A stretch of DNA of 64,000 bases from an uncultured Candidatus Saccharibacteria bacterium (lineage in GTDB: Bacteria > Patescibacteriota > Minisyncoccia > UBA6257 > 2-01-FULL-56-20): contig CAYIAX010000002.1 in NCBI GenBank assembly GCA_964361595.1, positions 7,722-71,721 on the forward strand, read 5' to 3'. Numbering within the stretch: the first letter of the stretch is position 1; each line of letters opens with the position of its first letter. The notes beneath the pieces were generated by a model. The model saw nothing but the letters and a program-made list of their open reading frames with translations. It had not been told where the DNA came from and did no database searches. Shown piece after piece: positions 19,208 through 21,613 of this stretch. Position numbers and translations under genes: made by a program.

Positions 19208-21043
19208 TTATATTTCTATAACCACCGGCAAAATCATCGGCCGCCGCTTGGTTTTATTGTACAAAAATTGGCCGATTTGGTCGCGGATCAAGGTTTTCAG
19301 ATAATCCGATTCTGTCGGCTGGTAGCTCGGCAGGCGCGCAATGAGGCCGCGGATCCGCTTCCGAATATCTTCCAAGATTTCCTGGTTTTCTTTGAGGTAG
19401 ATAAAGCCGCGGGAAATAATATCGGGATTTTTCAAGAGACGGCCGTGATCGCGGTCAATCGTGGCGATGATTACAACCATGCCTTCTTGGGCCAAACTGC
19501 GGCGATCGCGGAGCACAACTTCTTCAACGTCGCCCACGCCTAAGCCGTCAACCATCACATAAAAAGCCGGTACGGTTTCTCCGGTAACGCGGAAAGTATC
19601 TTTTGTGAGTTCGGCTACCTGGCCGTTGTCCATCAAGATCGCATGGTCTTTGGGAATTCCTACTTCCCGCGCGGATTGGGTATTCGCGGCGCGCATGAAA
19701 TAATAGCCGTGGACGGGAATGATAAATTTAGGTTTGATGATTTCCATCACCAGCTTCAAGTCTCCCTTGGGCGCATGGCCGGAAGAATGGATGTCGATAA
19801 GATTCGAATGGTAGACGATCGCGCCCTGGCGGGAAAGATTATCTTTAACAACCTGAACGCTGCGTTCATTTCCGGGAATGACGGAAGAAGATAAGACGAC
19901 GGTGTCGCTGGGTTTGATTTTTATTTGCCTGTGCTCGCCATTGATGATTTTCATCAAGCTCGCGTTCGACTCTCCTTGTGCGCCGGTCGAAAGGATCAGC
20001 AATTTATCATCGCGAATTTTATGTATGTCTTCCAAGGGGACAATCGTGCCTTGTTTCGGCTTGATGAAGCCGAGATTTTGCGCGATCTGGATATTGGCTT
20101 TCATCGAATAGCCGGATAAGGCCACGCGCTTGCCCAGATGCTCGGCGATTTTGATGATTTCGGCGATCCGGGTCAAAAGCGAAGCGAAAGTTGCGACAAT
20201 GATCCGCCCCTCGGCTTTGCGGAAGATCTCTTCCAGATTCTTTTCAACTACTCGTTCGGAAAGGGAGTGCCCTTCTTCTTCGGCGTTCGTGCTGTCGATC
20301 ATAAAGCTGTGCACGCCCATGGCCGCAATTTTTTCAAACTCATCAAGCCCTTGCGCTTCCTCATTTTCGTCGTAATCAATGCGGAAGTCGGCGAAGTGGA
20401 CCATGTTGCCCACGGGCGTTCGCAGCAGCACGCCGGTAGTTTCGGGAATGGTGTGCGGCACGCCGAAAAAGAGCGCTTCAAAGTAATTTGAAAGCCGCGC
20501 GCGCATGCCGTTTTTTATAATTTGCACATTCATCTTCGGCGTGTTCGGAAAGTCTTCCTGCCGTTTCTCAATGATGGCTTTTGTGATCGAAGTTGCGTAA
20601 ATCGGCGGGTTTCCGATCCGCTCCAAAATATGCGGCAGGGCGCCGATATGGTCATAGTGGGCATGCGTGAGGATTAGAGCCTGGATATTCGCTTTGCGCT
20701 CCTCGAGATATGTAACATTAGGAATTATATAGTCCACGCCCGGCGTTTCTTCTTCGGGAAATTGGAGGCCAGCGTCAATGATGACGATCTCATTTTTATA
20801 TTCAAAAAACATCATATTGCGGCCGACTTCTTCAAGTCCGCCCAGAGGGACGAAACGCAGTGGCGCAATGCCGTTTGCGGAGTTCTTTTCGGCCGCCGGA
20901 GCGGGCTGGTTTTTTTGCGTGCGCAAAATACGCGCGCGGGAAGCGCTTTTAAATTTTTTGTCCAGATGCTGATTATGGCTCGGCGGATTCGCGCGCTGAT
21001 ACGAATGACCGCGCCGATGGCCGTCTTTTCTTTGTGTGTCCAT
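19208..21043 (-). CDS. rnj: Ribonuclease J (metallo-beta-lactamase/beta-CASP) with a basic N-terminal extension. The start is probably MDTQRK; the ORF-track first Met lies inside the palindrome.
   Basis: LILTHAHYDHIGALP (HxHxDH) and beta-CASP motifs. Confidence 0.85.
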   Translation of the reverse strand: MDTQRKDGHRRGHSYQRANPPSHNQHLDKKFKSASRARILRTQKNQPAPAAEKNSANGIAPLRFVPLGGLEEVGRNMMFFEYKNEIVIIDAGLQFPEEETPGVDYIIPNVTYLEERKANIQALILTHAHYDHIGALPHILERIGNPPIYATSITKAIIEKRQEDFPNTPKMNVQIIKNGMRARLSNYFEALFFGVPHTIPETTGVLLRTPVGNMVHFADFRIDYDENEEAQGLDEFEKIAAMGVHSFMIDSTNAEEEGHSLSERVVEKNLEEIFRKAEGRIIVATFASLLTRIAEIIKIAEHLGKRVALSGYSMKANIQIAQNLGFIKPKQGTIVPLEDIHKIRDDKLLILSTGAQGESNASLMKIINGEHRQIKIKPSDTVVLSSSVIPGNERSVQVVKDNLSRQGAIVYHSNLIDIHSSGHAPKGDLKLVMEIIKPKFIIPVHGYYFMRAANTQSAREVGIPKDHAILMDNGQVAELTKDTFRVTGETVPAFYVMVDGLGVGDVEEVVLRDRRSLAQEGMVVIIATIDRDHGRLLKNPDIISRGFIYLKENQEILEDIRKRIRGLIARLPSYQPTESDYLKTLIRDQIGQFLYNKTKRRPMILPVVIEI

Positions 21044-21051
21044 ATTTTTAT

Positions 21052-21072
21052 TTGGTGCTGGAGAGGAGATTC
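21052..21072. repeat. 21-bp direct repeat duplicating the 3' end of tRNA-Leu (ttggtgctggagaggagattc), identical to 21363-21383
   Basis: Exact match to the T-loop-to-CCA segment of the tRNA about 310 bp away. This is a classic att-like flank. Confidence 0.8.
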
Positions 21073-21120
21073 CCGCCCATTGCAAATGGGCGAGCCTCGC
21101 CCATTTGCAATGGGCGGGAA
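21070..21120. repeat. Perfect 51-bp palindrome (ttcccgcccattgcaaatgggcgag g ctcgcccatttgcaatgggcgggaa)
   Basis: 25-bp arms. It abuts the direct repeat, lies downstream of the GIY-YIG gene and upstream of rnj. Confidence 0.8.
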
Positions 21121-21123
21121 CTC

Positions 21124-21363
21124 TTACTTAAAAAATTGTTTTAGTTTTCTTCGACCACCTTCGCTTTTCCAATATTTTTCGCGCTCCTTAGCTGAACCGA
21201 GATTGGAAACTTGTTCGGAATATAAAATCTTAAATGGTGTTCTATTTCTTGTTGCTTTTACTTTACCCAAGTTATGTTCCTGAAATCGCTTTATAATATT
21301 TTCCGAAAATCCCGTATAAGTCTTTCCATCTTTTAAGCTCTGAAGGATATATACAGTATACAT
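21124..21363 (-). CDS. GIY-YIG nuclease-domain protein (YhbQ/UPF0213-like, 79 aa)
   Basis: MYTVYILQSLKDGKTYTGFSENIIKRFQEHN matches GIY-x10-YIG plus the Arg/His/Asn core. It starts 1 nt after the tRNA 3' end. Confidence 0.75.
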   Translation of the reverse strand: MYTVYILQSLKDGKTYTGFSENIIKRFQEHNLGKVKATRNRTPFKILYSEQVSNLGSAKEREKYWKSEGGRRKLKQFFK

Positions 21364-21450
21364 TGGTGCTGGAGAGGAGATTCGAACTCCTATGGTCTTG
21401 CGACCGCTGGCTCCTGAAGCCAGTGCGTCTGCCAATTCCGCCACCCCAGC
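21364..21450 (-). tRNA. tRNA-Leu (anticodon CAG), class II with a long variable arm and encoded CCA
   Basis: Folded by hand: acceptor GCUGGGG/CUCCAGC, anticodon stem-loop CUGGC-UUCAGGA-GCCAG, T-arm AGGAG-UUCGAAU-CUCCU, discriminator A. Confidence 0.85.
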
Positions 21451-21613
21451 GCGCAGGGTTAACTATTGTGTGCTCTATGGAGATGGAGTTGTTGAACTCA
21501 AGAATCCCTTCGTGGTTTAGGAATATAAGAAATTGACTGGTAGAAAGTGTAGTTTAAGCCAAAATCGGCCTCTTGTCAACCAAGCTTAACTCGGTCAACC
21601 CAGCCGAGCCGGG

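Follow-up and report, generated by a model that had tools for sequence, protein, structure and literature searches.

A GIY-YIG nuclease gene and a double-hairpin element behind tRNA genes form a probable small selfish cassette in Patescibacteria

In a 64,000-nt stretch of contig CAYIAX010000002.1 from an uncultured Candidatus Saccharibacteria bacterium (hereafter, the window), a 311-bp segment at the 3′ end of the tRNA-Leu(CAG) gene of this groundwater bacterium carries a gene for a 79-amino-acid GIY-YIG nuclease, followed by a 45-nt double-hairpin element (DHE) that splits a second copy of the tRNA end. The segment is a lineage-specific insertion at a conserved junction between tRNA-Leu(CAG) and rnj, the gene of RNase J, and has kept the tRNA whole. 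It represents a family whose unit consists of a stand-alone GIY-YIG nuclease gene of ∼80 codons and a DHE behind an intact tRNA, with a leftover copy of a tRNA 3′ end downstream. We read the segment as probably being a small selfish cassette that targets tRNA genes in a homing-type, nuclease-driven manner and belongs to a widespread, apparently undescribed family of the Patescibacteria (Candidate Phyla Radiation, CPR).

Results

The cassette is absent from the tRNA-Leu(CAG)–rnj junctions of relatives

A preliminary description of this locus had proposed an insertion at the tRNA 3′ end that regenerates the tRNA and has a copy of the tRNA end on either side, and comparison with relatives bears this out. 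RNase J relatives were drawn from metagenomes and assemblies (60–80% RNase J identity), and ∼60 distinct relatives have a same-strand tRNA-Leu(CAG) upstream of rnj. In most of them the tRNA is followed by a short A/T-rich spacer and the rnj ATG, i.e., by a clean empty site, so that direct succession of the two genes, which the preliminary description had proposed to look for, is the rule. The empty site reconstructed for the window joins tRNA-Leu(CAG) directly to AATAAAAATATG-rnj. A GIY-YIG gene between tRNA and rnj together with the 11-mer GCGAGGCTCGC, a conserved part of the DHE, was found only in the window's own organism, represented by contigs from two Hainich groundwater assemblies; these contigs are identical to the window (L087–L089; loci are cited by L numbers). 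Neither the 11-mer nor the DHE is present in the cassette-free loci of the relatives (>350 kb). The arrangement is thus not common to the relatives, and because the cassette is limited to the window's own genome, the GIY-YIG gene is not a core gene in synteny with rnj. Such a presence/absence polymorphism at an otherwise conserved site is one feature of free-standing homing endonuclease genes.

Further tRNA rearrangements were observed at the same rnj locus. In L112 (1700–2260), a distant GIY-YIG gene (38% identical, without the 11-mer motif) directly follows the 5′ half of an old tRNA-Leu, which has a ∼62-nt insert in its D loop and stops in the anticodon loop (GGCTTCA/CA ATG), and a new intact tRNA-Leu(CAG) lies downstream of the gene. 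The acceptor stems of the rnj-adjoining tRNA-Leu(CAG) genes are very different among relatives (L081–L168), e.g., CCTGCCCA, CCTCGGCA, GGAGGGCA, and CTCCAGCA, and older tRNA-Leu 3′ fragments are found downstream of the current tRNA in L081, L085, L128, and L147. These sequences suggest that the tRNA allele at the rnj locus has been replaced repeatedly.

A double-hairpin element splits the duplicated tRNA end

On the minus strand, the order is promoter-like site, tRNA-Leu(CAG), nuclease gene, palindrome, tRNA-end copy, and rnj, with the following features.

21551–21579, minus strand: promoter-like site TTGACA-17-TAAACT, a consensus match ∼100 nt upstream of the tRNA
21364–21450, minus strand: intact tRNA-Leu(CAG) with encoded CCA (ARAGORN; Rfam tRNA, 52.7 bits)
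21363–21389, minus strand: repeat copy 1, GAGTTCGAATCTCCTCTCCAGCACCAA, 27 nt, comprising T-stem 5′ strand, T loop, acceptor 3′ strand, CCA, and the A of the ATG
21124–21363, minus strand: gene for the 79-amino-acid GIY-YIG nuclease, predicted minimal Slx1-like/UPF0213 type (ATG 21363–21361, TAA 21126–21124)
21118–21123, minus strand: repeat copy 2, left piece GAGTTC, comprising T-stem 5′ strand and first T-loop bases
21073–21117, minus strand: 45-nt DHE, C [CGCCCATTGCAAATGGGCG] AGGCT [CGCCCATTTGCAATGGGCG] G
21116–21098, minus strand: DHE hairpin A
21097–21093, minus strand: DHE spacer
21092–21074, minus strand: DHE hairpin B
21100–21090, minus strand: conserved 11-mer GCGAGGCTCGC within the DHE
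21070–21120, no strand: perfect 51-nt palindrome, i.e., the DHE plus three flanking T-loop bases per side
21052–21072, minus strand: repeat copy 2, right piece GAATCTCCTCTCCAGCACCAA, 21 nt, exact, T loop to CCA plus A
19208–21043, minus strand: rnj (RNase J, 611 amino acids), start ATG 21043–21041, 8 nt past repeat copy 2

The tRNA, the 21-bp repeat, the gene, and the palindrome with 25-bp arms all lie where the preliminary description had placed them, and the nuclease ATG directly abuts the tRNA, its A being the first base after the CCA. In the 64 kb there are exactly two copies of the 21-mer TTGGTGCTGGAGAGGAGATTC (21052–21072 and 21363–21383), against 0 expected in shuffled sequence even at 3 mismatches. 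A generic repeat was rejected, as the 21-mer and the palindrome arm are each confined to this locus in the window. The 21-nt copy is exact, as reported, but the duplication is longer: once the 45 nt from 21117 to 21073 are removed, GAGTTC (21123–21118) and GAATCTCCTCTCCAGCACCAA (21072–21052) together match 21389–21363 at 27/27 positions. Because this removal restores the complete copy, the palindrome represents an insertion within the T loop (TTC/GAA) of a duplicated tRNA fragment. It is indeed present and perfect, as had been described, but it is not a separate neighbour of the repeat; it is the window's form of the conserved DHE. Its arms (21070–21094 and 21096–21120, 25 nt each with 1 nt between) are 100% complementary, and folding as single-stranded DNA gives −34.7 kcal/mol (z = −11.5). 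In the window, hairpin A is complementary to hairpin B as well, and this makes the 51-nt palindrome perfect; arms of 25 nt without a mismatch are peculiar to this copy of the DHE.

Two roles that had been suggested for the palindrome were not upheld. A terminator was rejected, since no intrinsic terminator is called at the palindrome on either strand and there is no T tract (flanks GAATCTCC and CTCTTAC). Nor does rnj start inside it: an identical 611-amino-acid RNase J in the protein collection (P0055) begins with MDTQ at ATG 21043–21041, and the TTG at 21085, inside the palindrome, is merely the first start codon of a mechanical open reading frame (ORF). The rnj start itself has therefore stayed unchanged, contrary to the remodelling that had been proposed.

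The neighbours of the cassette encode a solute-binding protein, SecG, RNase J, and the Trp-tRNA and Ile-tRNA synthetases. The promoter-like site at 21551–21579 is the sole prediction between there and rnj, none being predicted between tRNA-Leu(CAG) and rnj, and such sites are no more frequent than in shuffled sequences. In the window, a hairpin of −35 kcal/mol now stands 30 nt upstream of the rnj start; in several relatives with empty sites (in L090–L168), rnj starts ∼10–60 nt from the tRNA-Leu(CAG) 3′ end. The gene may be co-transcribed with the tRNA and freed by tRNA processing. Residues 1–61 of RNase J (20860–21043) are basic and of low complexity, with a length that is highly variable among relatives, where the distance from the tRNA to the conserved core of RNase J ranges from 72 to >1,100 nt.

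Homologues follow tRNA genes across the Patescibacteria

Dozens of homologues of the nuclease (80–90 amino acids, 50–71% identity) were found in Patescibacteria, and 80 loci from species-representative genomes carrying them were scanned for tRNAs. A same-strand tRNA ends ≤200 nt upstream of 58 of the 77 genes with enough upstream sequence, and ≤12 nt upstream of 16 genes, compared to a local background of 2% for the 200-nt distance (binomial P ∼1e-80). The gene family is thus strongly enriched immediately downstream of tRNAs, a point that the preliminary description had proposed to test. The host tRNAs are Gly (TCC, GCC, CCC), Leu (TAG, CAG, TAA), Pro, Asp, Glu, Arg, and Met, and the closest relatives of the window protein (67–71% identity) are found at tRNA-Leu(TAG), Gly(CCC), and Gly(GCC).

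The family occurs in two layouts. In the gene-first layout, to which the window belongs, the tRNA is followed by the gene, GGGTTC, the DHE, and C(G/A)A(A/T)TCC with an acceptor 3′ strand, so that the downstream part is a tRNA 3′ fragment with its T loop split by the DHE. The GGGTTC half-site precedes the DHE in other gene-first loci just as GAGTTC does in the window, and the sequence GGG-TTC-CCG-CC is often read as a GFPP C terminus of the protein. In the DHE-first layout, which follows tRNA-Gly and rarely tRNA-Met, the last bases of the tRNA form the 5′ arm of hairpin A, and a short copy of the tRNA end stands between hairpin B and the gene; L054, L072, L075, and L047 have a T-loop-to-3′-end copy past the stop codon. 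A neighbour-joining tree groups the gene-first proteins, whose tRNA hosts are mixed, into a single clade nested among the DHE-first proteins. In one DHE-first locus, L047 (2458–2700), a group I intron (RF00028, 56.6 bits, Rfam) lies between tRNA-Phe and the tRNA-Gly preceding the nuclease gene; it may reside within a tRNA missed by ARAGORN.

Duplicated and displaced tRNA fragments point to recombinational repair

At Gly, Leu, and Asp tRNAs, exact 18–22-nt copies starting from T-loop position C56 are present in L001, L002, L005, L009, L013, L026, and L054. On its left side the duplication begins at the T arm throughout, and on its right side it extends between +1 and at least +36 nt beyond the end of the tRNA. 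With a variable right and a fixed left limit, recombinational repair fits better than a fixed staggered cut or site-specific recombination, and a target-site duplication of fixed stagger was rejected on the same grounds. In L004, L007, L010, L020, L022, L037, L040, and L292–L294, the downstream fragment is the well-formed 3′ end of a different tRNA allele. Moreover, a 5′ piece of an older tRNA lies upstream of the intact tRNA in L020, L081–L084, L292, L294, and L067, so that in these loci an older tRNA gene encloses the intact tRNA and the DHE and, except in L081–L084, the nuclease gene as well. As far as the sequences allow, the 5′ and 3′ fragments of an older tRNA that bracket a new tRNA and its DHE in L020, L081–L084, L292, and L294 are consistent with co-conversion of flanking markers. 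Further signs of movement come from the comparison of L009 and L294, which have gene, DHE, and downstream fragment in common and differ in the intact tRNA, and from L017 and L044 of one metagenome-assembled genome, where near-identical DHEs are found at two tRNA-Pro genes. Truncated nuclease genes (L022, L067, L079) and ORF-less scars at the rnj locus itself (L081–L085, L090) were also observed.

The tRNA-end repeats had been described as attL/attR-like, a wording that implies a site-specific recombinase. We found no evidence for one: in agreement with the preliminary description, the GIY-YIG gene is the sole cargo, being the only ORF in the insert, and no tyrosine or serine recombinase is encoded there or in the gene table of the window neighbourhood. 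The resemblance of the direct repeats to attL/attR could still reflect an integron-like system, in which a circular cassette of ORF and hairpin is inserted at the tRNA 3′ end by a recombinase encoded elsewhere, the DHE acting like attC and the nuclease gene being cargo; the two layouts would then be circular permutations of one unit, and the DHE would be a folded site with unpaired bases. We consider this very improbable, since besides the missing integrase the "cargo" comes from one and the same nuclease family throughout, the DHE is restricted to that family, the repeats vary from 18 to >55 nt, and the imprecise left junctions keep old tRNA 5′ fragments, unlike the products of site-specific recombination.

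Since tRNA 3′ ends are classic integration sites and tRNA-end direct repeats flank the insert, the segment might alternatively be what is left of a larger island or prophage integrated at the tRNA, decayed to the nuclease gene and a single att-like repeat. We give hardly any credence to this explanation: the same minimal unit of ∼300 bp recurs in >60 loci of many CPR lineages with no other element genes, neither PHROGs nor PADLOC has a match for the protein, and a single weak relative was found among 2.9 million viral contigs (IMG/VR), on which ground a phage origin was rejected. In GenBank phages, only genes of 36–39% identity were detected, mostly in Rhizobium phages, and the two regions inspected have no annotated tRNA gene. 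The 14-mer GGGCGAGGCTCGCC is held by at least 120 viral contigs; as 0 of the 81 examined have the double hairpin, these were discarded as chance matches.

The nuclease is a single GIY-YIG domain

The 79-amino-acid protein matches the Pfam family GIY-YIG (PF01541) over residues 1–73 (E = 2e-14, 54 bits versus a cut-off of 22.6) and has no other Pfam domain, so that all of it is GIY-YIG domain. The nuclease domain thus lacks the sequence-specific DNA-binding domain with which it is combined in homing endonucleases. Y5, Y16, G18, R26, H30, and E62, which cover the catalytic positions of the superfamily (GIY Tyr, YIG Tyr, Arg, His/Tyr, and metal-binding Glu), are invariant in an alignment of 40 sequences, in which no invariant C-terminal Asn follows E62. 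An AlphaFold2 model (pLDDT 92.3) has the expected beta-beta-alpha-beta-alpha topology. A profile search of the PDB retrieved the UPF0213 proteins BH0048 (1ZG2, E = 3.9e-10) and EF2693 (1YWL, 4.1e-9), followed by SLX1, and the best Foldseek matches were 1ZG2 and Slx1 nuclease domains (TM 0.6–0.69), followed by the I-TevI catalytic domain. Judged by sequence and predicted fold, the protein is a minimal member of the Slx1-like/UPF0213 branch. No NCBIfam model scores above its cut-off (group I intron endonuclease, 18.5 bits versus 56). The wider family comprises 3,910 clusters at E ≤ 1e-10 and 16,407 at E ≤ 1e-3.

In many of these proteins, gene callers push the nuclease ORF upstream through the tRNA, leading to spurious N-terminal extensions of 20–58 amino acids. 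The mechanical ORF of the window (21124–21444, 106 amino acids) likewise reads through the tRNA and is on record as P0001; an exact look-up of the 79-amino-acid protein had no match because the collection holds this over-extended form.

The double-hairpin element is conserved and its hairpins covary

The exact 11-mer GCGAGGCTCGC is present in 57/80 loci, with few exceptions on the same strand as the gene, and lies at the centre of the DHE consensus, which reads [CGCyC..top..GrGCG] AGGCT [CGCCC..top..GGGCG] G with hairpins in brackets. The hairpin tops vary between loci yet pair perfectly: 54 distinct hairpin-A sequences form perfect stems of 8–16 bp with 3–4 pair types per stem position, and an 8-bp stem is reached by ∼0.4% of random positions. 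An Rfam scan of the window passed the tRNA only, and a scan of 20 loci had no hit at the DHE; matches of the hairpin to miRNA precursors (27–36 bits versus gathering thresholds of 90–100) were dismissed as generic long-hairpin artefacts.

A structure-specific, transposon-like mechanism is the main rival to a homing cassette. The double hairpin would be a cis-acting end, and the Slx1-like nuclease would act on structure and not on sequence, cutting the hairpin or cruciform or the folded non-template strand of a transcribed tRNA gene, whereupon the unit would be cut or copied into T-loop-like sequences. In line with this, the fold of the protein is closest to UPF0213 and to the nuclease domains of Slx1, an enzyme that processes branched DNA; the protein is without a DNA-binding domain; and the DHE combines inverted termini (CCGCCC/GGGCGG), two covarying hairpins, and invariant unpaired bases, is always inserted at the centre of a TTC/GAA-like sequence, including a T-arm look-alike in an anticodon loop, and occurs as tandem arrays in L025, L068, and L072. 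Still, we regard this mechanism as unlikely. Despite its inverted termini, the DHE is a single copy in the 64-kb window, unlike a miniature inverted-repeat transposable element or insertion sequence, and DHEs are not dispersed (0 in the relatives' gene-less loci, >350 kb, and few solo copies in the 80 loci). Target-site duplication around the DHE is inconsistent (0–1 nt), and the tRNA-end repeats are long and vary in their right limit, with whole tRNA alleles transferred along, which looks more like recombinational repair than like transposition.

Some DHEs have unusual surroundings. The solo DHE of L036 (2680–2790) has no adjoining gene and splits the anticodon loop of a second tRNA-Glu-like copy at GGTTCTC/ATCC, a site resembling the T-arm consensus; an assembly gap follows. 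The tandem arrays comprise 2–4 DHE units between tRNA and nuclease gene (L025, 2679–2931; L072, 860–1037; L068, 75–200). L054 ends within a repeat of at least 55 nt composed of tRNA end, spacer, and motif, a repeat that probably caused the assembly to break.

Hairpin covariation is equally expected for RNA. In a further rival reading, the nuclease gene would be a resident, tRNA-linked gene that serves the cell, e.g., in the metabolism of tRNA or nucleic acids, and is co-transcribed with the tRNA, the hairpins and tRNA-end copies being RNA processing or stability signals (a tRNA-like minihelix, RNase P/Z sites). In both layouts, the start codon lies 0–12 nt past a real or copied tRNA 3′ end. 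In the DHE-first layout, which is almost confined to tRNA-Gly, GAGCG-A-GGC-T-[hairpin]-GCC-CGCTC forms a 13-bp acceptor/T-arm-like minihelix whose ends covary with the tRNA tail, e.g., TTTGCG...CGCAAA at tRNA-Met, and a fusion to the tRNA methylase TrmH in the protein family hints at RNA metabolism (PMC1564403). However, the gene is missing at ∼60 orthologous tRNA-Leu(CAG)–rnj sites, and the splitting and displacement of tRNA fragments, the replacement of tRNA alleles, the truncated copies, and the scars without an ORF all arise at the level of DNA. The downstream tRNA piece often derives from a different tRNA than the adjacent one and therefore provides no matched RNA signal, and the hairpins match no Rfam family. 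A purely resident gene thus appears improbable to us; an RNA-level role of the hairpin (tRNA-like minihelix, near-leaderless mRNA) may exist alongside mobility.

Discussion

A model for spread between tRNA genes

The preferred reading, a homing-type selfish cassette, would operate as follows. The nuclease would break cassette-free tRNA genes in or beside the universally conserved T-arm sequence GGTTCRANTCC, and the break would be repaired from a cassette-bearing copy, with the intact tRNA as the left homology arm and the T-loop-to-3′-end fragment as the right arm. Repair would copy the nuclease gene and the DHE into the new site, often together with the donor tRNA allele. The DHE would either disable the second copy of the target or itself be the binding or cleavage site of the nuclease, or both. 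Expression of the gene probably depends on read-through from the tRNA promoter, which would yield an almost leaderless mRNA.

Several points weigh against this reading. Cleavage of the allele that lacks the gene is inferred, with the fixed breakpoint at the T arm as the only indirect evidence; activity, target, and cut site of the nuclease are predictions. The protein consists of the catalytic domain only, without the DNA-binding domain to which SegB and I-TevI owe their specificity. UPF0213 and Slx1, to which it is most closely related, are structure-specific or of unassigned function and were regarded as repair proteins with vertical inheritance (PMC1564403). The intact tRNA beside the cassette keeps a complete T arm, so that self-immunity is not accounted for, and simple homing explains neither the first duplication nor the landing of the DHE in the T loop. 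The DHE-first layout, almost always at tRNA-Gly, offers weaker direct evidence of mobility and could be old and stable. Finally, the insertion in the window is undatable, because RNase J identity does not exceed 85% in any of the relatives found.

More broadly, Slx1-like/UPF0213 stand-alone GIY-YIG proteins, or at least a large CPR branch of them, could drive a hitherto unrecognized class of minimal mobile elements that home to the T arm found in all tRNA genes and regenerate or replace the tRNA, and hence horizontal turnover of tRNA alleles in genome-reduced bacteria. The specificity of the enzyme may then come from DNA structure, i.e., a hairpin or folded tRNA-gene strand, in place of a DNA-binding domain. 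We put this generalization forward tentatively, at slightly less than an even chance. A large family of mini-nucleases of unassigned function would thereby gain a role, and a branch thought to consist of vertically inherited repair proteins would also include selfish elements. The cassette could account for the tRNA fragments scattered in CPR genomes and for the unusual variety of their tRNA alleles at one locus, and a nuclease and a short DNA hairpin acting against a sequence found in every tRNA gene would be a tractable system for how a bare catalytic domain finds its target. In practical terms, the N-terminal annotation of the nuclease family is systematically wrong where ORFs are extended through the tRNA.

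Comparison with known systems

Full-text literature searches retrieved no account of bacterial GIY-YIG cassettes linked to tRNAs or of bacterial hairpin inserts in T loops; closest in topic is a recent survey of Patescibacteria tRNA genes, which reports anticodon-loop group I introns only. Integrase-mediated islands and prophages at tRNA sites share with the cassette the insertion at a tRNA 3′ end, the regenerated tRNA, and tRNA-end direct repeats on both sides. In contrast, the cassette has no integrase, measures only ∼300 bp, has repeats of variable length, the second of which is split by a hairpin element, and sometimes keeps old tRNA 5′ fragments. In fungal mitochondrial genomes such as that of Allomyces, free-standing endonuclease ORFs replace the 3′ end of a resident gene, and the displaced end is left downstream. 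Small GC-rich double-hairpin DNA elements of Allomyces mitochondria are mobile, as stated for Paquin et al. 2000 where PMC3787672 cites it; they differ from the DHE in their organelle host, their sequences, and their protein-gene targets.

Prokaryotic Slx1-like proteins have been described as the minimal GIY-YIG form and as vertically inherited repair factors, and selfish GIY-YIG enzymes have been placed on the UvrC-related branch (PMC1564403). The UPF0213 proteins BH0048 and EF2693, the best sequence and fold matches, likewise consist of a single minimal domain without the conserved C-terminal Asn. Their function is unassigned, and, unlike for the cassette family, neither a tRNA-linked, patchy, cassette-like distribution nor an associated DNA element is reported for them in PMC1564403.

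The closest known relative of the cassette is SegB of phage T4, a free-standing GIY-YIG endonuclease in a tRNA gene cluster that promotes the inheritance of itself and the surrounding tRNA genes by co-conversion (PMC2330249). Its 27-bp site consists of GGTTCRANTCC, a degenerate stretch, and CCAR, and is cut after CCAR (PMC2330249). In both systems a GIY-YIG gene lies among or behind tRNA genes, the duplicated 27-nt span of the cassette equals the span of the SegB site, and the cassette ORF starts at the equivalent of the SegB cut. SegB also spreads with neighbouring tRNA genes, as the tRNA allele replacements suggest for the cassette. The two differ in that SegB belongs to a two-domain class with nuclease and DNA-binding domain, according to the account of that class in PMC3664794, whereas the cassette protein is a catalytic domain only and falls on the Slx1/UPF0213 branch, not on the homing-endonuclease/UvrC branch. 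The cassette also resides in bacterial chromosomes, not in a phage, and has a DHE and a split, duplicated tRNA fragment, neither of which is described in the SegB paper (PMC2330249). A free-standing, tRNA-directed GIY-YIG homing element is thus an already known kind, and what is new is the minimal Slx1-like nuclease, its obligatory DHE partner, the split duplicated tRNA fragment, and the chromosomal, CPR-wide distribution. If our reading is correct, the cassette would be a cellular counterpart of T4 SegB and, at ∼300 bp, among the smallest autonomous mobile units known.

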